Shown piece after piece: positions 9,870 to 49,552 of a stretch of 64,000 nucleotides of DNA (position 1 is its first letter; every line of letters starts with the position of its first letter). The stretch comes from Solirubrobacterales bacterium. GTDB lineage: Bacteria; Actinomycetota; Thermoleophilia; Solirubrobacterales; Solirubrobacteraceae. Under the pieces are notes generated by a model. It worked only from the letters and a program-made list of their open reading frames with translations, had not been told where the DNA came from and ran no database searches. The stretch covers positions 4,362-68,361 of the forward strand of contig DAHUYL010000110.1 of the NCBI GenBank assembly GCA_027315255.1, written 5' to 3'. The position numbers and the translations under genes were made by a program.

Positions 9870-11438
9870 TCACGCAGGGGCGGGCGTGCGTCGCCGGCGG
9901 CGCAGCTCGCGCGCGGCCGTGTAGCGCTCGCGCGCGTGCTGGGTCGCGAGCGCACTCCCGACTCCGAGCAGGGTCCAGGTGACGGGATCCTCGAGGAAGT
10001 CGGCATACAGCATCGTGTGCATCACGAGCGCGAGGAAGGCCGCGGCGATCGCGGCCCGGGCCGGCAGCGCGCCGCTCGAGTCGAACACCGTCCGCAGGGC
10101 CGTGAGGACGAGCGCCAGGTAGACGATCAGCCCGAGCAGCCCCTGCTCGGCGGCGACCGTGATCGGGATCGTATGAGAGTCCGACAGCGAGCTCGAGATC
10201 GCCGGGTTCTGATGCTTGTACTCGACCGAGAAGCCGCCCGAGCCGTAGCCGTACAGCCACTCGTCGCCGAACATGCGCAGGCCGCCGGTGATCAGGTTGG
10301 CGCGACCGCTGGAGGCATTGTTGAGCCCCTGGTTGAGGCCGAACGTCTTCGGCGAGATCGCGACCGCGGCGCCCCCGAGCACGAGCACGGCGGCGGCCGC
10401 GATCAGCACCGGGCGCATCCGCCAGCGCAGCGCCGCCAGCGTCGCCATCCCGACGAGCAGCGCTCCCAGGCTCGACCGCGACAGCGTCAGCACGAGCCCT
10501 CCCCACAGCACCGCCAGGACGGCAGTAGCGGCCAGCTGCCGCCGACGGCTCGGCTCGTACAGCAGCACCGCGACCAGCAGGATCATCACGAGCGCCAGGT
10601 AGCGTCCGAAGATGTCGGGGTCGAAGAAGACCGAGTTGACGGTGAAGTACGGGTGATTCGAGTTGGTCGCGATCAGCTTCGGGTTGAGCAGGATCGACTT
10701 CGTCGCCTCCTCGACGAAGCCGAGGCACGCGAACACGACCGCGAGCGCCGCCGTCGCCACCAGGCAGCGGGTGAGCAGCTCGCGATCCCAGCTCAGCTCG
10801 CGCAACTGCCGCTGCAACAGCGCGAACGGCACGTAGAAGAACACGGTGTTGCGCAGTGCCGACTGGAAGTCGACGGAGTAGCTCGCCTGGAGCGCGTACA
10901 GCACCAGGAACGCGGCGAGCAGCTGCTCGAAGCGGTGAATCCCGGCGCCGCCGGCCACCGGGCCGGCGGCGCCGTCGTCGAAACCGAGCCCGCGGCGAGG
11001 CGCGGGAGCGGCGCGGCGGCCGGACAGGACCGGCACCAGCCACGCGAGCGCCGCCGCCGCGATCACCACGTACAACGGAACCAGCAGGTTGTAGGTGTGG
11101 CCGCCGACGGAGATCGGGATCCTGAACGGGAGCGCCACGACCGTCAGCGGCCCGAGCAGCCGCGGACGTCGTGCGATCGCGACCGCGAGCGCCGCGACCA
11201 GCACGACCCCGAGTGCGGCGGCCACGGCTGCGACGGGCGGATGACGGTGGATCACGTCGAGCTGGGGGGAGCGCCAGATGTCGGCCAGCAGCAGCACCGG
11301 CGCGAGCACGAGCGCTGCGAGCATCGCCCAGGCTCGGGAGGAGTCCTCGCGGGCGAGCAGGACCGCGGCCGCCAGCGCCGCGACGGCGATCACGCCGAGC
11401 CGCGGAAGCGGGCCAGTCAGCACGGCGAACGCGATCAC
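9870..11438 (-). CDS. O-antigen ligase/Wzy_C-like membrane protein
   Basis: Polytopic; VFFDPDIFGRYL, LTLSRSSL, SSGR...GYGSGGF...DSHTIPITVAAEQGLLG (Wzy_C-like periplasmic loop with conserved His). Confidence 0.8.
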   Translation of the reverse strand: MIAFAVLTGPLPRLGVIAVAALAAAVLLAREDSSRAWAMLAALVLAPVLLLADIWRSPQLDVIHRHPPVAAVAAALGVVLVAALAVAIARRPRLLGPLTVVALPFRIPISVGGHTYNLLVPLYVVIAAAALAWLVPVLSGRRAAPAPRRGLGFDDGAAGPVAGGAGIHRFEQLLAAFLVLYALQASYSVDFQSALRNTVFFYVPFALLQRQLRELSWDRELLTRCLVATAALAVVFACLGFVEEATKSILLNPKLIATNSNHPYFTVNSVFFDPDIFGRYLALVMILLVAVLLYEPSRRRQLAATAVLAVLWGGLVLTLSRSSLGALLVGMATLAALRWRMRPVLIAAAAVLVLGGAAVAISPKTFGLNQGLNNASSGRANLITGGLRMFGDEWLYGYGSGGFSVEYKHQNPAISSSLSDSHTIPITVAAEQGLLGLIVYLALVLTALRTVFDSSGALPARAAIAAAFLALVMHTMLYADFLEDPVTWTLLGVGSALATQHARERYTAARELRRRRRTPAPA

Positions 11439-41452: not shown

Positions 41453-43354
41453 TCAGCCGAGGAGCAACGGAAGCTCCGCCGCCGGGAGCGGACGCGCGAG
41501 CAGGAACCCCTGGACGCGGTGACATCCGAGCTCGCGCAGCGCCTCGAGTTGCGCCTCGGTCTCGACCCCCTTGGCGGTGACCACGCCTCCGAGCCCCTCG
41601 GCGATCGTGACCACGCCGGCGACGATCGCGCGACTGGCACCGGCGGCCGAGATGTCGGAGACGAAACCGCGATCGAGCTTGAGCCCCCGGAGCGCGCACC
41701 GCCCGAGCAGGCCGAGCGACGAGTGTCCGGAGCCGAAGTCGTCGATCACGAGGCCGATGCCCGCGCGCTCCAGTTCGGCTAGCTGGAGCGCGGTGACACT
41801 GTCGGGATCGATCAGGCGGTCCTCTGCGATCTCGAGCGTCAGCGACGAGGCGGCGACGCGCGCATGCGCCAGCGTCTGGCGCACCGACGTGGCGAACCCC
41901 GGGCGGCCCAGCTGGCGCGCCGACACGTTCACCGACAGCTCGAGCTGGCGGCCGGTCAGGTCGATCAGGCGGCGGATCTCCTCGCAGCTCTCGCGCAGCA
42001 CCCAGGCACCGAGCGGAACGATCGCGCCCGTCTCCTCGGCCAGCGGGATGAACTCCGCCGGGGCGAGATCGCCCAGCTCGGGGTGGTGCCAGCGCACCAG
42101 CGCCTCGACGCCTACGATCGCAGCGCCGCCGGGCGTCCCCTCGGCGAGCTCGAAGACGGGCTGGAATGCAAGCGTCGTCTGACCGCGCAGCTCCGCGTCG
42201 TGCAGCCCGCGCCCGATCAGCAACCGGCGACTCGCGCGCGCCGGGGTGGCGCCTTCGTAGAAGCGACAGTCGTTGCGACCCGCACGCTTGGCGGCGTACA
42301 TCGCGCAGTCGGCCTGGCGGATCGCTTCGGCGACGTCGACCGCCTCGTCCTCGATCAACGTCACCCCGACGCTGGCGGTGACGCCCGCGCCACCGATGCT
42401 CTGCAGCGGCCTGGAGACGGTGTCGAGCACCCGGTCGGCGACGTCCTCGGCCAGGGAGCGTCCGGTCAGGTCCTCGAGGATGATCACGAACTCATCGCCG
42501 CCGAACCGTCCGACGAAGTCGCGGCCCCGCAGGGACGCGCGCAGCCGATCGCCGACCTCGCGGATCATCTCGTCGGCGCGATCGTGCCCCAGCGAGTCGT
42601 TCAGGACCTTGAGACCGTCGAGATCGACGAACAGGACCGCGGCGGCTGCGCCCGGCGCGACGCGGCGCAACGCCGCTTCGAGCTGGTCGAAGATCGCCCG
42701 CCGGTTGGGCAGCCCCGTGAGCGCGTCGTGACGGGCGTCGTGGATCAGCTTCTGCATCGCGTTACGCCGCTCGATCGCGATCCCGGCCAGGCGCGCTCCG
42801 TCGCGCAGCAGCTCGAGGTGCTCGGGCTCGGGCCACCGCGGCGCCGCGCCGTACAGCGCGAACGTGCCGAGCACGGCGCCGTCGGTGCCGACGATCGGCA
42901 TCGACCAGCAGTGGCGGATCCCGCACCTGGCCGCGAGCTCGCGGACCGGCTGCCACCTGGGATCGCTCGCCATGTCCTCGCTGACGACGAGCTCGCCCGA
43001 CCACGCGGCGGAGCCGCAGCTGCCGACGTTCGGACCGATCACGACGCCGTCGATCGCGGCGAGCCACTCAGGCGGTAGCGACGGGCCGGCTCCGGGATGA
43101 AGCGTGCTCGAGTCACGGTCGAGCAGCACCACGCAGGGCATCACCGATGGCTCGCAGCGCTCGATTCCGAGCGTCAGTTCGTTCAGGACCTCGCCGAGCG
43201 GTGCGCCCTCACCGATCAGTTCGTGCAGCCGCGCGTGGCAGGCGACGAGCAGCCGCGCCCGCCGGCCGTCGACGAGCCCCTCCGGCGCGTCGGTGGACGG
43301 CGCTGGATCTGAGACACCGGGCAGCGTCGCGCCGGACGATGAACCACGCTCCAT
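41453..43354 (-). CDS. GAF-GGDEF-EAL c-di-GMP protein
   Basis: GSCGSAA (GAF), DALTGLPNRR, RGRD...RFGGDEF, EALVRW, DDFGSG, AKGVET. Confidence 0.92.
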   Translation of the reverse strand: MERGSSSGATLPGVSDPAPSTDAPEGLVDGRRARLLVACHARLHELIGEGAPLGEVLNELTLGIERCEPSVMPCVVLLDRDSSTLHPGAGPSLPPEWLAAIDGVVIGPNVGSCGSAAWSGELVVSEDMASDPRWQPVRELAARCGIRHCWSMPIVGTDGAVLGTFALYGAAPRWPEPEHLELLRDGARLAGIAIERRNAMQKLIHDARHDALTGLPNRRAIFDQLEAALRRVAPGAAAAVLFVDLDGLKVLNDSLGHDRADEMIREVGDRLRASLRGRDFVGRFGGDEFVIILEDLTGRSLAEDVADRVLDTVSRPLQSIGGAGVTASVGVTLIEDEAVDVAEAIRQADCAMYAAKRAGRNDCRFYEGATPARASRRLLIGRGLHDAELRGQTTLAFQPVFELAEGTPGGAAIVGVEALVRWHHPELGDLAPAEFIPLAEETGAIVPLGAWVLRESCEEIRRLIDLTGRQLELSVNVSARQLGRPGFATSVRQTLAHARVAASSLTLEIAEDRLIDPDSVTALQLAELERAGIGLVIDDFGSGHSSLGLLGRCALRGLKLDRGFVSDISAAGASRAIVAGVVTIAEGLGGVVTAKGVETEAQLEALRELGCHRVQGFLLARPLPAAELPLLLG

Positions 43355-43418
43355 GAATTAGAGATCGACCGCGCGGCTGCCTGCTTGATCGGTGGAAACC
43401 CGCCGTACACTTCGCGCG

Positions 43419-44516
43419 ATGCGACCGGTCCCCGGGCGACGAGGGTCCGGCACCCGGGCCGGACCCTCGGGAATCAGCGCGCTCGGGGCGGTCGTGCTGG
43501 CGCTGGTCGGGCTGCTCTTGACGCAGGCGCCGGCGGCGCGCGCGGGCGGTCGCGGCGACGCGCGCGTGATCGGGACGTTCACGATGCTCGCGGTCGTCAC
43601 CGAGGCGGTGAACGTGAACGGCGAGAGCCCCGGCCAGATCCTCACACGCGCGTGGGCGATCCGGCCGCGCCGCTGCCGGAGAGACTCGTGCCAGTCGCTG
43701 GTGCTCGTGCGCCAGCGCAGTGACGGCTTCCACAGCGCGCTGACGCTGTCGCGGACCGGGCCTGGAAGCTACGCCGGAACCGGCGTCTTCTACGTGGCGC
43801 TCCGGTGCCGGCGCCGCGTCTACCCGCTGGGCAGCCGGGCGCCCTACCGGATCACGCTGGTGGTCGAGAGATCGACGCTGATCGGCGGGATCAGGTTCGC
43901 GACGACGGTCGGGGCCACCTATGTCAACGCGGCACGCTCCGACACCACCCCGTGTCCGCTGGAGTCGAGTCACGACGCGGCGATCTACGCCGGCAACGTG
44001 TCGGGCGGCTTGCCGGGCGCACCGCGAGCGTCGTTCACCGCAACCGTGCACGGCGCGAGCGGCGCGGTCAGCTTCAGGGACACCTCGCGGCCGGGCCGGG
44101 GCAACGGCCGGATCGTCCGTCGCGCATGGTCGTTCGGCGATCCCGCTTCGCGTCACCGGAACACCTCGACGCTGCGCAAGCCGGTGCGCGTCTACAGCCG
44201 ACCTGGCCGCTACCGGGTCCACCTGCGCGTGGTCGATGCCGATGGGCTGAGCGCGACGACCGCCGCGACCGTGACGATCCCGGTATCGACCACGACGGTG
44301 CCGACCACGACGGTGCCGACGACGACGGTGCCGACCACGACGGTGCCGACCACGACCACGCCGACCACGACCACCCCGACGACGACTACGCCGACGCCGG
44401 CGCTGAGCGCTCGATCGTGGCGAGCACCCGATCGAGCGCATGCACGAGCGGGTCGATCCCGCCGGCGGCCGGCTGGACGACCGCATACAGGCAGCTGGTC
44501 CGGCCGTCGGCCGTGA
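43419..44516 (+). CDS. Secreted protein with a PKD domain and Thr-rich stalk
   Basis: Signal ending ARA; WSFGDP...VYSRPGRYRVHLRVVD (PKD); TTTVP repeats. Start could be 43392 or 43419. Confidence 0.7.
   Translation: MRPVPGRRGSGTRAGPSGISALGAVVLALVGLLLTQAPAARAGGRGDARVIGTFTMLAVVTEAVNVNGESPGQILTRAWAIRPRRCRRDSCQSLVLVRQRSDGFHSALTLSRTGPGSYAGTGVFYVALRCRRRVYPLGSRAPYRITLVVERSTLIGGIRFATTVGATYVNAARSDTTPCPLESSHDAAIYAGNVSGGLPGAPRASFTATVHGASGAVSFRDTSRPGRGNGRIVRRAWSFGDPASRHRNTSTLRKPVRVYSRPGRYRVHLRVVDADGLSATTAATVTIPVSTTTVPTTTVPTTTVPTTTVPTTTTPTTTTPTTTTPTPALSARSWRAPDRAHARAGRSRRRPAGRPHTGSWSGRRP
44288..44397. repeat. 15-bp tandem repeat (TTTVP x4, TTTTP x3)
   Basis: ACCACGACGGTGCCG-type units. Confidence 0.85.
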
Positions 44517-44841
44517 AGAACCGCTGCCACCCGAGCTGGCGCGGCCGGGTCACCTGAAGCTGGCTGGGCGAGAACTCGTGCGGCCGCGGGGCGGGCTGGC
44601 CCAGCGGCCCGAACAGGCCGACGCCGGGCCGGATCCGGTCCGGATCGCTGAACTCGAGCAGCGCCGCGAACGCGTCGCCCGGGCGCATGCGTCCGGTGGC
44701 AGCCCCGCCGTAGTCCCCGTCCGAGGGGAGCAGCGGGAACGTCGCGACGTGCAGCACCGGGCCGGCCTGGTGACGCCGCGTGATCCGGCCCTCCCACCCC
44801 GGCGGCAGCTCGACTGCGAGCCCGTGACCGGTGAGCCTCAC
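44386..44841 (-). CDS. Hypothetical protein, last gene of the mau-like operon
   Basis: GTG 44841 overlaps the mauF-like stop (GTGA). LAVELPPGWEGRI...LHVATFPL...DYGG...LQV...QRFFTADGR..CLYAV. Confidence 0.7.
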   Translation of the reverse strand: MRLTGHGLAVELPPGWEGRITRRHQAGPVLHVATFPLLPSDGDYGGAATGRMRPGDAFAALLEFSDPDRIRPGVGLFGPLGQPAPRPHEFSPSQLQVTRPRQLGWQRFFTADGRTSCLYAVVQPAAGGIDPLVHALDRVLATIERSAPASA

Positions 44842-45506
44842 GCCAGCACGGACACGACGGCCGCCAGCGCCACCAGCTCCGCTGCGACGACCGCGCGCCG
44901 CGCGCGCGGCTCGAGCCTCAGCAGCCGCCGGTGCACCGCGCGCAGCGACTCGGGATCCCGCGCGAATCGCGTCGGCAGCAGCGTGAGCGCCTTGCTCGCG
45001 CCGAACACGGCACCGACGGCCGCGCCGGTGAGCGCGCTGGCGCTCAGCAGCTCGACGGCGAAGGTCGCGTAGATCGCCGCGCAAGCGACCAGCGTGATGA
45101 ACCCGAGGCCCAGCTGGGCGCCGAATCCGAACCCGTAGACCCAACCCCGGTAGCGGGTCATCCAGTCCTCGTTCACCTGGCGCCGGGTCAGCGGCATCCG
45201 CCGGCGCAGCGGGGTTCCGTCGATGACCAGCGCCACGACCAGCACCGCAGCCACCATCGGCGTGCGCCAGCCGCTGCCGGGCAGCAGCGCGCCGACCGTG
45301 CCAAGCAACGTGCCGCCGGCCGCGCCGGCACCGATCGCCCCGACTGCGACTGCGGTCACGGTCACCCGCCAGGAAGATCCGCGCGCGCGTTCGGCGACCG
45401 GAGTGAGGCTCGCGAGCATCGACTGGCCGCATGGAGACCAGGCGGCACGAACCGCGCCGTGGACGGCGATCAGGCCCCCGATCAGGAAGAACACGAGCTG
45501 GCTCAC
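44838..45506 (-). CDS. MauF-like / DsbD-CcdA-like membrane thiol-redox protein
   Basis: AAWSPCGQSML (MauF-type WSPCG), RQVNE, GFGFGAQLGLGF, second Cys in LVAC. Confidence 0.7.
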   Translation of the reverse strand: MSQLVFFLIGGLIAVHGAVRAAWSPCGQSMLASLTPVAERARGSSWRVTVTAVAVGAIGAGAAGGTLLGTVGALLPGSGWRTPMVAAVLVVALVIDGTPLRRRMPLTRRQVNEDWMTRYRGWVYGFGFGAQLGLGFITLVACAAIYATFAVELLSASALTGAAVGAVFGASKALTLLPTRFARDPESLRAVHRRLLRLEPRARRAVVAAELVALAAVVSVLA

Positions 45507-46192
45507 GGACGCTCCTCCGGCTGCCGGGACGGATACAGGCTCGGGTGCCCGGCGGCGATCCCGGAGACCGCCAGCGCCCGGTCGGCGCGCGCGGCGCGCT
45601 CGGCGGTCGTCCGCGCCCCGTGCAGTGCGCTGTCATCGCGCGCGTCGCGCAGGAGCGCGGTGATCTGCTCCCAGCTGCCGGCGCTGCCTCGCCCGATCAC
45701 GCCCTCCCCACCGCCGACCAGCACGAAATGCGGTGTCGCTGGGACGGCCATCTCCTCCCAGGCCTCGGTCGACATGACGAGCTCGACGCCGCGCGGGGCG
45801 AGCTCGAGCAGCCGCGCCAGCCGTTCTCGCTCGGGACCCTTGGTGACGACCACGAGCCGGGCGTCCAGGCGGAGCTCGGCCGGCTCGTGCAGGCCGGACC
45901 ACAGCGGCTCGCAGGCCGTGCAACCGCTGCTGAGGAACGCGAGCAGGGTCGTGGGCGAAGCCGCGCCGAGCGCGATCTTGACGGCATCCCCGTCGAGCGT
46001 CTGGCCGACGATGTCGCGGACCGGGCCGCCCGCCGGAGCCGACGCAGCCGCTCCCGCCACGGTGCCGCGCCCCTCGAGCGCGCCGAGTCGCCGCAGGATC
46101 TCGGCGTGACTTCGCAGGAGCGCGACGATGAACAGCGCCGCAACCACCAGCACTGCGCCCTCGACCAGGATCGCGATCGTCGACGCGGTCAT
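45503..46192 (-). CDS. MauD/TlpA-like membrane-anchored thioredoxin-fold protein
   Basis: N-terminal TM helix ending LLRSHAEILRRL; FLSSGCTAC (CxxC); TPHFVLV. Confidence 0.8.
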   Translation of the reverse strand: MTASTIAILVEGAVLVVAALFIVALLRSHAEILRRLGALEGRGTVAGAAASAPAGGPVRDIVGQTLDGDAVKIALGAASPTTLLAFLSSGCTACEPLWSGLHEPAELRLDARLVVVTKGPERERLARLLELAPRGVELVMSTEAWEEMAVPATPHFVLVGGGEGVIGRGSAGSWEQITALLRDARDDSALHGARTTAERAARADRALAVSGIAAGHPSLYPSRQPEERP

Positions 46193-46195
46193 CCG

Positions 46196-47260
46196 CTACA
46201 CCCCACCGGCACCGGCAAGCTCGAGTGCATCGGGAATCAGACAGGCCGCGTCCTGGGCGCAGACCGCGTTCTCGACTGCCAGCGACGCGCTGCATCCGAG
46301 TGCCGGAACCGTGCTCGGGTTCTCGCACAGCACCATCCGGCAGACGACCGCCGTGACCCCGGCGACGTGGGCGTTGCACTGGCCGTAGCGGAAGACGTTG
46401 CACGCCACCCGCCGCTCGGAACAGGTCCCGCCCGCACACTGGCATCCGCCCGGGAACTCGGCACCCGGGAGCGCGTTGCAGTCGACGTAGTAGCGCAGCC
46501 CGTGCCCGGCGCACAGCTGGCTGCCGGCGTAGTCGGTGCACATCCACCAGCCGCCGGCGAACGTGCCCTCGGGGCAGCTGTTGAGGCCGCCGGTGATCTG
46601 GCAGCAGAACGCCGTCCAGCCGTCGGTGCAGAGCCCGTCAGTGCAGTCGGACGGCATGATCGCGGCGAGCGCCGTACCCGGGTAGAGCAGGTAGCGCAGC
46701 GGCGCCACCGCCAGCGCCGAGCCGACGAGCGCGATCCGCTGGAGGGCGGTGCGGCGCGTGAACCCGCGCTCGAGCGCGAGCGCCGAGCCGCGCGCGAGCG
46801 ACACCGCGATCCGGTCGGCGGCTCCGGCCTCGAGGCTGAAGAGGACGCGCCAGAGCGACGCGCCGATGACGGCGGCGAGCACCGTGAGCGAAGCTCGGCC
46901 GGGAGCGGCGCCGCCGAGCTTGACGATGCTCGGAGCGCCCGTCAGCCCCACGACGAGCGAGCAGATCGCAGACGCCGCTGTGAGCGTCGTCGCGCGCAGC
47001 GCCGACGCTCCCCGGGGCGAGTCGGCGCCGAAGCACTCACACCCGTCGAGTCCCGCCCGCCAGCGGCGGACGTGCGCCGCGGCGAAAGTCGCGTACACGA
47101 TCGCGAGCAGGATCCCGGCGGCCGCCCCCGGGATGACGATGGCGATGCCGGCCAGCGCCAGCTCACCGATCGCCAGCGGACTGACCGACTCCCTCAGCTT
47201 GACTGCGGCGGCGCTCGCGAGCACGAGCGCGAGCGACAGCACGACGGCCGTTCCGATCAT
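46196..47260 (-). CDS. MauE-like membrane domain fused to a Tat signal and an 18-Cys MauA (amine dehydrogenase light chain)-like domain
   Basis: GCECFG (MauE-type CxCFG), FTRRTAL at aa 167-173, CCQITGGLNSCPEGTFAGGWWMC...RYYVDCN. Confidence 0.7.
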   Translation of the reverse strand: MIGTAVVLSLALVLASAAAVKLRESVSPLAIGELALAGIAIVIPGAAAGILLAIVYATFAAAHVRRWRAGLDGCECFGADSPRGASALRATTLTAASAICSLVVGLTGAPSIVKLGGAAPGRASLTVLAAVIGASLWRVLFSLEAGAADRIAVSLARGSALALERGFTRRTALQRIALVGSALAVAPLRYLLYPGTALAAIMPSDCTDGLCTDGWTAFCCQITGGLNSCPEGTFAGGWWMCTDYAGSQLCAGHGLRYYVDCNALPGAEFPGGCQCAGGTCSERRVACNVFRYGQCNAHVAGVTAVVCRMVLCENPSTVPALGCSASLAVENAVCAQDAACLIPDALELAGAGGV

Positions 47261-47389: not shown

Positions 47390-47420
47390 GGAGGGCCCGG
47401 CACTGAAGGCCGGGCCCTCC
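47390..47420 (-). terminator. Hairpin terminator after groEL
   Basis: Perfect 12-bp stem GGAGGGCCCGGC / GCCGGGCCCTCC, 7-nt loop. Confidence 0.75.
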
Positions 47421-47462: not shown

Positions 47463-49094
47463 CTACATCATCCCCGACATGTCGGGCATGCCACCGCCAC
47501 CGCCACCGCCCGACTCCCTCTCCGGCACCTCGGCGACGATCGCCTCGGTCGTGAGGATGTTCTTGGCGATCGACGCGGCGTTCTGCAGCGCCGAACGCGT
47601 CACCATCGCGGGGTCGATGATGCCCTCGGCGATCAGGTTCACGATCTCGCCGTTGGCGGCGTTCAGGCCGTGGTCCTTCTTCGCCTTGCGGACGTCGTTG
47701 ACGACGACCGAGCCCTCGAGCCCGGCGTTCTCGGCGATCTGACGCATCGGCTCCTCGAGCGCGCGGAACACGATCCGCGCACCGGTCTTCTCGTCGGCGT
47801 CCTCGATCGCGTCGATGTCGAGCGCCTTCTGGGCGACCAGCAGCGCGACACCGCCGCCCGGCACGATGCCCTCCTCGAGGGCCGCGCGGGTGGCCTGCAG
47901 CGCGTCCTCGACGCGGTGCTTCTTCTCCTTCATCTCGGTCTCGGTCGCAGCGCCGACCTTGACGACCGCGACGCCGCCCGACAGCTTCGCGAGGCGCTCC
48001 TGGAGCTTCTCACGGTCGAAGTCGGAGTCGGTGTTCTCGATCTCGTTCTTGATCTGGTTGATGCGGCCCTTGATCGCGCTCCCGTCACCGTTGCCGTCGA
48101 CGATCGTCGTCGTGTCCTTGGCGACGACCACGCGGCGGGCGCGGCCGAGCTGGCTCGTCTGGGTGTTCTCCAGCTTGAGGCCCATCTCCTCGGTGATCAC
48201 CTCGCCGCCGGTGAGGATCGCGATGTCCTCGAGCATCCGCTTGCGGCGATCGCCGAAGCCCGGCGCCTTGACCGCAACCCCCGTGAACGTGCCACGGAGC
48301 TTGTTGACCACGAGCGTCGCGAGCGACTCGCCCTCGACGTCCTCGGCGATGATCAGCAGCGGCTTGCCCGACTGGATCACCTGCTCGAGCACCGGCAGCA
48401 CGTCCCGGACCGAGCCGATCTTCTGGTTGGCGATCAGGATGTAGGGGTCCTCCAGGACTGCCTCCATCCGATCCTGGTCGGTGACCATGTAGGGCGAGAT
48501 GTAGCCCTTGTCGAACTGCATGCCCTCGGGGAACTCGAGGTCCATGCCGAACGTCTGGCCCTCCTCGACGTTGACGACGCCGTCCTTGCCGACCTTGTCG
48601 ATCGCGTCGGCGATCACGTCGCCGATCTCCTCGTCGCCGGCCGAGATCGTCGCCACCCGGGCGATCTGCTCCTTGCCCGAGATCTCCTTGGACTGCGACG
48701 CGATGTTGGCGACGACCTGCTCCACGGCCTTCTCGATGCCGCGCTTGAGCGCCAGCGGGTTGGCGCCGGCCGCCACGTTCTTCAGGCCCTGACGGACGAT
48801 CGCCTGCGCGAGCACGGTCGCCGTGGTGGTGCCGTCGCCGGCGACGTCGTTGGTCGCGGTCGCGACCTCGCGGACGAGCTGCGCGCCCTGATTCTGGAAG
48901 ACGTCCTCGACCTCGATCTCACGGGCGATCGTGACGCCGTCGTTGGTGATCGTCGGCGCGCCGAACTTCTTGTCGAGGACGACGTAGCGGCCCTTCGGGC
49001 CGAGCGTCACCTTGACCGCGTTCGCTACCGCGTCGACGCCCAGCTCGAGCGCCTTGCGGGCCTCCGCGTCGTACTTCAGTTCCTTGTGTGCCAT
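47463..49094 (-). CDS. groEL: Chaperonin GroEL
   Basis: [48 protein letters not shown]-type tail. Confidence 0.98.
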
Positions 49095-49124
49095 GTGTGT
49101 TTCCTGGTTCTCCTGGGAGTTGAG

Positions 49125-49418
49125 CTACGACTGGACCTTGGCCAGCACGTCGGACTCGCGGAGGACGAGCAGCTCTTCGCCGTCGACCTTGATCTCCGTC
49201 CCGCCGTACTTGCTGTAGAGGACCTCGTCGCCTTCGGCCACGTCGAGCGGGGTGCGCTTGCCGGTGTCCTCGTTGACCTTGCCGTCGCCGACGGCGAGGA
49301 CCTTGCCCTTCTGGGGCTTCTCCTTCGCGGTATCGGGGAGGACGATGCCGCTGGCCGTCGTCTCCTCCTCCTCGATCGCCCGCACGATCAGTCGATCGCC
49401 AAGGGGCTTGAGCTTCAT
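49125..49418 (-). CDS. groES: Co-chaperonin GroES
   Basis: [34 protein letters not shown]. Confidence 0.98.
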
Positions 49419-49454
49419 CGATGAAACCTCCGGGATGTTTTGATGTTCCGTCCC

Positions 49455-49481
49455 CTGGCACTCTTCAGCCGAGAGTGCCAA
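49455..49481. promoter_or_regulatory. CIRCE (HrcA operator) 1
   Basis: CTGGCACTC-N9-GAGTGCCAA. Confidence 0.92.
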
Positions 49482-49525
49482 CGGCGCAATGATAGCCGGA
49501 TCCGGCGGTCCACCGCAAGCTGATC

Positions 49526-49552
49526 CTGGCACTCTCATTTACCGAGTGCCAG
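49526..49552. promoter_or_regulatory. CIRCE (HrcA operator) 2
   Basis: CTGGCACTC-N9-GAGTGCCAG. Confidence 0.92.

Follow-up and report, generated by a model that had tools for sequence, protein, structure and literature searches.

A conserved cassette of MauE-, MauD- and MauF-like genes with a fused twin-arginine leader and 18-cysteine domain in Solirubrobacterales

The closest described relative of the system considered here is the mau cluster for methylamine dehydrogenase (MADH). In Methylorubrum this cluster consists of mauF, B, E, D, A, C, J, G, L, M and N (mauFBEDACJGLMN; locus L088 in our numbering), and its small cysteine-rich cargo, MauA, has 12 cysteines and follows a long twin-arginine leader. 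To our knowledge, the function of MauF is still unknown. We analysed a stretch of 64,000 nucleotides from a Solirubrobacterales bacterium (assembly GCA_027315255.1, contig DAHUYL010000110.1, positions 4,362 to 68,361 of the forward strand), below called the window, in which four genes of the minus strand at 44386-47260 resemble the mau cluster in part. They encode homologues of MauE, MauD and MauF, the last with the shared motif WSPCG, and again a small cysteine-rich cargo behind a long twin-arginine leader. However, MauB, MauG, amicyanin, MauJ, MauL, MauM and MauN are missing from the cassette. The cargo has 18 cysteines, lies outside the family PF02975 and lacks the second tryptophan of tryptophan tryptophylquinone (TTQ). 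Moreover, MauE is fused to the cargo, and there are an extra gene, ORF4, and, in this taxonomic order, a partner with a PKD domain. Our reading, to which we give a probability of about 60%, is that the cassette is a self-contained set for thiol-redox maturation and export of a disulfide-knotted extracytoplasmic domain, shares its ancestry with the MauE/MauD/MauF/MauA part of MADH clusters, and is not a methylamine dehydrogenase.

Several other systems are similar in parts. MauE is found mostly without MauA and has been argued to be a generalist DsbB-like oxidase (preprint 10.64898/2026.03.05.709764). According to the same preprint, the MauE signature comprises a CXC active site followed by Phe-Gly, a Lys on helix 1 and a Glu on helix 2; the CXC motif is essential in two MauE proteins, two MauE proteins substitute for DsbB in E. 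coli, and MauE is proposed to hand electrons to quinone. Compared with these proteins, ORF1 of the cassette has five helices plus a sixth, the leader helix, and the fusion partner of its MauE domain is a substrate instead of a thioredoxin domain. The VKOR-thioredoxin and DsbB/DsbA pairs also combine a membrane thiol oxidase with a thioredoxin-fold carrier, and fusions of the partner genes occur. They have no sequence relation to the cassette, in which the oxidase is fused to its client and a third membrane component with a single cysteine or candidate selenocysteine is present. The gamma subunit of quinohemoprotein amine dehydrogenase is a small cysteine-rich protein with cysteine tryptophylquinone (CTQ) and thioether cross-links, and needs a radical-SAM enzyme and a flavoprotein. 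Here both enzymes are absent, and the PDB searches detected no sequence similarity to this subunit. Polytopic membrane proteins integrated by both the Sec and the twin-arginine translocation (Tat) pathways (actinobacterial Rieske, Sco3746) resemble ORF1 in an internal twin-arginine motif ahead of the last helix, the weak hydrophobicity of this helix, a positive charge on its C-terminal side and a globular domain after it, which in ORF1 is predicted to be extracytoplasmic (PMC5449189). The known Sec/Tat proteins carry FeS, haem or Mo, whereas the passenger of ORF1 is disulfide-rich, has no known cofactor and has a possible AxA release site. In the decRiPPter clusters of Streptomyces the predicted precursors of ribosomally synthesised peptides with post-translational modifications (RiPPs) are short, and MauF-like and ORF4 partners are unreported there (PMC7794033).

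The initial annotation described four coupled genes, and their coordinates and junctions are exactly as it had given them. A 3-nt gap (TAG-cgg-ATG, ORF1/ORF2) is followed by two 4-nt overlaps (GTGA at both ORF2/ORF3 and ORF3/ORF4). ORF1-3 carry the third-position G+C signature of coding sequence in a window of about 72% G+C, and the reality of ORF4 is backed by 182 homologues and synteny. The proposed MauE::Tat::Cys-rich build of ORF1 was also correct: a MauE-type domain, a leader with FTRRTAL and ALA, and exactly 18 cysteines in the cargo domain. The identical window sequence is present in mine-drainage and soil metagenome runs, all of them DNA metagenomes. The features of the cassette are as follows.

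46196..47260, minus strand: ORF1, 354 aa, MauE domain, twin-arginine leader and 18-Cys domain
46826..47260, minus strand: MauE-type domain, ORF1 residues 1-145, five hydrophobic helices
47198-47200 and 47162-47164, minus strand: K21 and E33, conserved MauE residues
47033..47041, minus strand: C74-E-C76, invariant CXC active-site motif, followed by F-G
46664..46825, minus strand: MauA-like twin-arginine leader, ORF1 residues 146-199, a retained leader
46751-46756, minus strand: RR motif of the leader, FTRRTAL
46199..46663, minus strand: 18-Cys domain (cargo), ORF1 residues 200-354, unannotated family
46544-46549 and 46481-46483, minus strand: W238/W239 and D260, conserved cargo residues
45503..46192, minus strand: ORF2, 229 aa, MauD-like, transmembrane anchor, CTAC
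45911-45922, minus strand: C91-T-A-C94 of ORF2, CxxC of a membrane-anchored thioredoxin fold
44838..45506, minus strand: ORF3, 222 aa, MauF-like, six-helix, WSPCG
45429-45431, minus strand: Cys26 of ORF3 in WSPCG, codon TGC, sole conserved redox residue
44386..44841, minus strand: ORF4, 151 aa, orphan family

As the library scores of the helper proteins were weak, they were compared directly with the genuine mau cluster of Methylorubrum. Family profiles made from the window genes and their relatives were matched with the L088 proteins, and phmmer was used for the reverse direction. ORF1 scores 21.8 bits with PF07291, under the cut-off of 27, and many of its orthologues carry this domain. The profile of the MauE-domain family matches the canonical MauE at E=1.6e-8. 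The search for homologues of ORF1 gave more than 633; across 43 of them K21, E33 and C74-x-C76-F77-G78 are invariant, and this set agrees with the signature given in the preprint (10.64898/2026.03.05.709764). The full-length AlphaFold model has pLDDT >90 across the MauE part. We regard the label MauE-like for the N-terminal domain as justified, in agreement with the homology proposed initially.

At E=3.3e-12 the ORF2 profile aligns end to end with the canonical MauD, to which ORF2 is 29% identical in a blastp alignment of 185 aa, and phmmer with MauD finds ORF2 in the window at 6.7e-6. The alignment with TIGR02661 also runs end to end, with a score of 22.5 bits, far under the equivalog cut-off of 188.6. 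For ORF2, described initially as a CxxC MauD, the homology and the CTAC motif stand; the protein is not an equivalog, and we consider the label MauD-like justified. For ORF3 the expected MauF-like protein was found: its profile matches the canonical MauF at E=3.7e-20 over 188 positions, TWSPCG of MauF corresponds to AWSPCG of ORF3, and phmmer with MauF finds ORF3 at 3.2e-13. Pfam and NCBIfam contain no MauF model, and ORF3 scores 19.2 bits with DsbD_2 (PF13386), under the cut-off of 24.9. CcdA and DsbD have two conserved cysteines, in helices 1 and 4; in ORF3 the second cysteine, C151, is not conserved, and Cys26 alone is. We judge the name MauF-like to be appropriate. ORF4, listed initially as an unknown ORF, belongs to an orphan family. 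It has no signal peptide or transmembrane segment; its 182 homologues, every one annotated as 'hypothetical', have no Pfam domain and are confined to the cassette. Its profile has no relatives in PDB and Pfam, and no similarity to MauJ and MauL was observed.

The cysteine codon of WSPCG is TGA in 48 of the 66 ORF3 orthologues and TGC in the other 18, and it is never TAA or TAG. The window ORF3 is of the cysteine form. The TGA forms occur in loci L004, L006, L007, L010, L013 and others, and in L089 and L092. In these genes the helix upstream of the TGA keeps the reading frame, and gene callers shorten them to the next Met. Two hairpins directly 3' of the TGA are common to the TGA forms only; the second, CUCCGCUC-GGY-GAGCGGAG, lies at +29..+47. 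RNAalifold gives -20.9 downstream of the codon for the TGA forms, compared with -6.2 for the cysteine forms. In the TGA forms 97% of the hairpin cells are paired, with two compensatory pairs, and this value falls to 32-57% when the pairing is slid. In one of the TGA loci, L092, selD (385 bits) is situated 2 kb away. No Rfam model of a selenocysteine insertion sequence (SECIS) matches the ORF3 hairpins, and a non-exhaustive literature search found no report of a MauF-type selenoprotein. We consider the MauF-like orthologues with TGA to be a candidate selenoprotein family. The alternation of selenocysteine and cysteine at WSPCG would mark Cys26 as the catalytic redox residue.

The cargo profile was searched against 1.84 billion representative proteins and retrieved 400 clusters (50% identity) with E<=1e-3, among them 270 with E<=1e-10. 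Among the top 151 proteins examined, the domain is N-terminal in 137, and an RRxFL-type motif is found upstream of it in 124. The domain either ends the protein or precedes LGFP repeats, CW_binding_2, DUF4214 or a PLL-type beta-propeller. The source names of these proteins are 'hypothetical' or describe the tail only. No Pfam family matches any of 55 diverse members, and neither Pfam nor NCBIfam has a model of the cargo, so that the suggestion of an undescribed actinobacterial system is borne out. In protein P0139 (L089 2869-4497) the cargo domain is fused to a lectin-like PLL-type beta-propeller. In protein P0127 (443 aa) a single ORF appears to carry the cargo domain and, after it, a MauD-like segment, whether through a true fusion or through a frameshift in the assembly, and P0131 holds an obviously frameshifted stretch.

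The number of cysteines is even in 118 of 127 cargo domains and ranges from 12 to 26, as would be expected if all cysteines were paired. Together with the Tat-like leader, this parity agrees with the initial description of an exported-type, disulfide-rich cargo. Sixteen other residues are retained in at least 94% of the members: G214, F218, G225, N227, P230, G237, W238, W239, R256, D260, R283, F290, Y292, G293, R308 and P315. They point to a functional site and not to a scaffold only. The C-terminus of ORF1, residues 345-354 (46199-46228, LAGAGGV), is kept in the fused family, with an invariant G353. An AlphaFold model of the cargo domain alone, made with the diverse 55-sequence alignment, has pLDDT 91.6 and pTM 0.85; it supersedes an earlier full-length run with 43 close homologues, in which the cargo had pLDDT of about 35. 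Foldseek found no match for the domain model in PDB (best E=4.8), and likewise none at E<1 for the full-length model. No PDB match was found by sequence either (phmmer and profile searches).

The leader is made up of an n-region helix of amphipathic character, the motif T-R169-R170-T-A-L, a hydrophobic stretch, the segment APLRYLLYPGT, and A-L-A199, a putative signal-peptidase site. The same leader opens the separate cargo proteins in loci where MauE and cargo are not fused. Among 102 unfused precursors, with the leader segment from the window counted as one of them, 73 have the strict motif S/T-R-R-x-F-L. With the leader alone, hhalign gave 47.6 (P=5.7e-10) against the MauA leader profile. 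In a control on the family leader profile the MauA leader scored 35, compared with 11-24 for 13 well-known generic Tat leaders, and the likeness of the two leaders appears specific, though not overwhelming. The whole precursors of cargo and MauA are aligned by hhalign with a probability of 97.2% (E=4.7e-11, 83 columns), and the HMMER precursor profile scores up to 28.9 bits on MauA sequences in a single continuous alignment. The columns aligned span the leader (amphipathic n-region, S-R-R-x-F-L, hydrophobic stretch and P-L) as well as the mature domain's first third, which has the motif C..C.DG..CC..G...CPxGT. Given this alignment and the MauE/D/F context, we judge a distant common origin of the cargo and MauA precursors likely.

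The mature domains alone give P=0.005 with hhalign (6% probability). PF02975, the light chain of MADH and aromatic amine dehydrogenase (AADH), matches neither the window protein at E<=1 nor any of the 55 members. Searches of PDB with phmmer and profiles, and Foldseek with the model of pLDDT 91.6, found no MADH/AADH light chain, Foldseek being weak on small irregular folds. W239, conserved in 100% of the members, lies within one residue of the TTQ residue beta-W57 in low-confidence parts of the alignment only. For the second TTQ tryptophan, beta-W108, the cargo has no conserved Trp or alignable segment. The C-terminal two-thirds of the cargo appear to be unrelated to MauA or diverged beyond recognition. 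The original description of the cargo as light-chain-like is thus weakly supported, by a likeness at the level of the precursor that is mostly due to the leader; PF02975, the PDB searches and Foldseek show no such likeness.

The conservation of the cassette was assessed by a scan of one genome per species. Relatives were found in 213 genomes, and the best 80 loci of the 213 were analysed; the survey was seeded by an alignment biased toward the fused Solirubrobacterales type. These loci come from Solirubrobacterales, Conexibacteraceae and other Thermoleophilia, and all but that of Conexibacter sp. DBS9H8 belong to metagenome-assembled genomes. In this neighbourhood survey the set is kept in these soil Actinomycetota, and the order MauE::cargo, ORF2, ORF3, ORF4 and a convergent PKD gene is the same in 63 of the 80 loci. 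Most of the remaining loci are explained by truncated contigs, and the few rearranged ones keep all members. Two genes interrupt the cassette in the rearranged locus L003 (11141-13223), one for a polysaccharide deacetylase and one for a secreted protein of 372 aa in which C...W motifs recur. ORF2 is present in 75 of the 80 loci, and ORF4 in 72 of the 80 fused and in all six unfused loci. The absence of heavy chain, MauG and amicyanin noted initially for this locus holds more widely: phmmer found no MauB, MauG, amicyanin, MauJ, MauL, MauM or MauN in the 64-kb window or the 80 loci. The only CxxCH motif of the window is in a spurious antisense ORF.

In six further loci, which belong to other lineages (L006, L007 and L089-L092; the label of one is Iamia), MauE and cargo are encoded by separate genes whose order varies. 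The separate MauE is 177-188 aa long where complete (in L090 it is cut by the contig end). MauD-like and ORF4-like genes are present in all six of these loci and a MauF-like gene in five. The separate cargo starts with an n-region helix, the RR motif and PLxYLLxPGTAxA, corresponding to residues 146-199 of ORF1. As the unfused cargo begins with the same leader, ORF1 represents an entire cargo precursor joined to MauE. Each of the 86 loci surveyed has its MauE gene fused to, or next to, a member of the cargo family.

These observations suggest the following scheme. Given the direction of electron flow that we infer, the MauE domain is probably a quinone-linked thiol oxidase that makes disulfides through its CXC motif and is joined to its own substrate via the leader. 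The leader is most likely a sixth, Tat-inserted helix that places the 18-Cys domain outside the cell, and cleavage after A-L-A199 may release this domain. The CxxC carrier ORF2 would pass oxidising equivalents between MauE and the cargo. For ORF3, whose single cysteine is a predicted selenocysteine in most orthologues, the most likely task is to reduce or reshuffle incorrect disulfides. ORF4 could be a cytoplasmic accessory, maybe a leader-binding chaperone. The cargo, with nine predicted disulfides, would be a surface or cell-wall-associated binding or catalytic module and not a TTQ enzyme; the wall-binding and lectin tails of its relatives suggest that it acts at the cell surface.

The role proposed initially, that of a quinoprotein or amine oxidoreductase, finds no support, as the second TTQ Trp has no counterpart and the cassette contains neither a heavy chain nor MauG or another cofactor-forming enzyme. 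In this reading the domain would be a light-chain-like catalytic subunit that oxidises amines or another substrate by a Trp-derived quinone formed on the invariant W238/W239, with the partner and the cofactor-forming enzyme encoded elsewhere. The likeness of the precursor to MauA, including C..C.DG..CC..G...CPxGT, the position of W239 near beta-W57 in a low-confidence alignment, and the presence of MauE, MauD and MauF homologues are all consistent with it, and the conserved polar residues N227, R256, D260, R283, Y292 and R308 suggest a functional site. However, the second TTQ Trp has no counterpart and the C-terminal two-thirds cannot be aligned; MauG, MauB, radical-SAM enzymes and flavoproteins are absent from the cassette, the window and the 80 loci; PF02975 and Foldseek find no light chain; and the fusion partners are wall-binding or lectin modules rather than redox partners. 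The even parity leaves no spare cysteine for a CTQ-type link and argues against a Cys-Trp cross-link. We consider this reading very unlikely. Similarly improbable is an antimicrobial or RiPP-like role of the secreted cargo, as a disulfide-stabilised toxin or bacteriocin that is directed against cell walls and tailored by MauE/D/F. There is a precedent in the decRiPPter candidates of Streptomyces, where mauE (in one case also mauD) stands beside precursors with at least eight cysteines and other mau genes are absent (PMC7794033). Further, conservation of the leader is strong, as it is where a leader guides maturation, and the tails of paralogous architectures target cell wall or glycans. On the other hand, a domain of about 155 aa with a confident globular model is far above the size of a RiPP core, and genes for immunity, transporters or proteases are missing from the cassette. 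In the window the domain is fused to a membrane enzyme of housekeeping type, and the cassette is near-universal and single-copy in the whole order, which fits an envelope role better than a variable weapon.

Another possibility is that MauE, ORF2 and ORF3 are general housekeeping equivalents of DsbB, DsbA and DsbD that serve every exported protein, and the cargo is one client among others or a regulatory appendage. This would agree with the view of MauE as a generalist found mostly without MauA (preprint 10.64898/2026.03.05.709764), and the neighbouring PKD protein, with four invariant cysteines, could be a further client. We think it unlikely, given that MauE is tied to one cargo family in all 86 loci, that the cargo leader resembles the MauA leader specifically, and that the MauF-like gene and ORF4 stay with the set despite changes of gene order. 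Least probable of all, and in our opinion extremely so, is a metal or iron-sulfur Tat substrate loaded in the cytoplasm. The strict Tat-type leader and high cysteine content are what one would expect of it, Tat being the usual route for cofactor-loaded proteins (PMC5449189). But the cargo lacks the ferredoxin-type spacing CxxCxxCxxxCP, parity is even over cysteine counts from 12 to 26, and the invariable partners are thiol-disulfide proteins and not cluster-assembly proteins. The iron-sulfur interpretation was rejected on the motif spacing and the parity.

The topology of the preferred maturation and export set can be considered using the fusion. In ORF1 (residues 63-175, 46736-47074) exactly two hydrophobic helices lie between the CXC loop and the RR motif, which places loop and motif on the same side of the membrane. 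The mean number of K+R in the 43 homologues is 0.6 at the N-terminus, 3.9 in loop 1, 0 in loop 2, 3.8 in loop 3 (with CXC), 1.2 in loop 4 and 7.6 in loop 5 (with RR). Applied to these counts, the positive-inside rule would put the CXC loop, the RR motif and the C-terminus of MauE in the cytoplasm and the cargo outside. The genuine MauE of Methylorubrum (L088 8753-9331) has the same bias, with 0, 5, 0, 5, 0 and 2 K+R per segment. Basic residues follow the anchor helix of ORF2, whose thioredoxin domain would be inside by the same rule, and the ORF3 loop starting at WSPCG is on the K/R-rich side. The leader helix has a hydropathy of 1.59, the lowest of the six helices of ORF1 (1.73-2.04 for the others), and Arg189 on its C-terminal side is invariant. 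Weak hydrophobicity and a C-terminal positive charge are the features that hand the final helix from Sec to Tat in actinobacterial membrane proteins (PMC5449189).

Several points weigh against the proposed set. The charge bias, with CXC inside, conflicts with the periplasmic location predicted for CXC in the two MauE proteins that complement dsbB (preprint 10.64898/2026.03.05.709764), and the oxidase and the exported cargo may be on different sides of the membrane after export. ORF3 has one conserved cysteine, unlike CcdA and DsbD, which leaves its chemistry conjectural, and no relatives of ORF4 can be recognised. The likeness to MauA is mainly through the leader, with only P=0.005 for the mature domains. 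The confident model of the cargo matches no solved structure. Finally, the absence of MauB and MauG covers the window and the 80 loci only. One possible way out of the topological conflict, which we advance tentatively and think rather doubtful, is that the MauE/MauD/MauF machinery acts at the cytoplasmic face: the disulfide knot would be made before Tat export, with proofreading by a selenocysteine-bearing MauF. Folding at this face would account for a strict Tat leader on a disulfide knot without cofactor. As a separate point, the cargo would have a new fold. Alternatively, the leader in the fusion may no longer span the membrane.

The cassette has the following neighbours.

43392..44516, plus strand: secreted PKD-domain protein, convergent, start codon uncertain
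47391..47419, minus strand: GC-rich hairpin of 11 bp between the groEL stop (47463) and the ORF1 start
47463-49538, minus strand: groES-groEL, directly upstream of the cassette on the same strand

A signal peptide opens the PKD protein; the rest comprises an N-terminal domain (about 150 aa, four invariant cysteines), a PKD domain (PKD_4, 4.3e-11) and a Thr/Pro-rich tail. Its gene shares 131 nt with the 3' end of ORF4 and contains in its 3' part a 15-nt tandem repeat (44287-44395) encoding TTVPTTT repeats. It is found beside the cassette in 72 of the 80 Solirubrobacterales loci, even where the order is rearranged, and is absent from the unfused loci. In Solirubrobacterales the cargo may act together with this protein. 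In the unfused locus L006 the convergent position is occupied by a gene (10424-11296, minus strand) for a protein with beta-propeller repeats of PD40/Tricorn type, for which no link to MauB was found. A GAF-GGDEF-EAL protein of cyclic-di-GMP turnover (41453-43354, minus strand) lies beyond the PKD gene and is not kept beside the cassette elsewhere.

On the upstream side, the hairpin has a folding energy of -31.5 kcal/mol (RNAfold). It has no T-run and was not flagged by the terminator scan; the promoter and terminator scan of the window gave nothing useful. In related loci groEL does not adjoin the cassette. A common operon with groES-groEL was rejected because of the hairpin and the missing neighbour elsewhere. 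The hairpin probably separates the cassette from groES-groEL, and the four genes were thus treated as their own unit.

The cassette is present in at least 213 species-level genomes, mostly of soil Solirubrobacterales, and reuses the least understood Mau proteins (E, D and F) for a cargo other than methylamine dehydrogenase. With it, a large unannotated family of disulfide-knot domains is now defined, without a structural match in PDB. The fusion of oxidase, leader and substrate constrains the topology of MauE, and the alternation of cysteine and candidate selenocysteine would pinpoint which residue of MauF is catalytic. That a domain with nine predicted disulfides has a strict Tat leader raises the question of where these disulfides form. 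If the machinery does act at the cytoplasmic face, the cassette would be a natural case of oxidative folding before export. This would explain the Tat leader on the MADH light chain with its six disulfides, would change the view of light-chain maturation, and could be useful for making disulfide-rich proteins.

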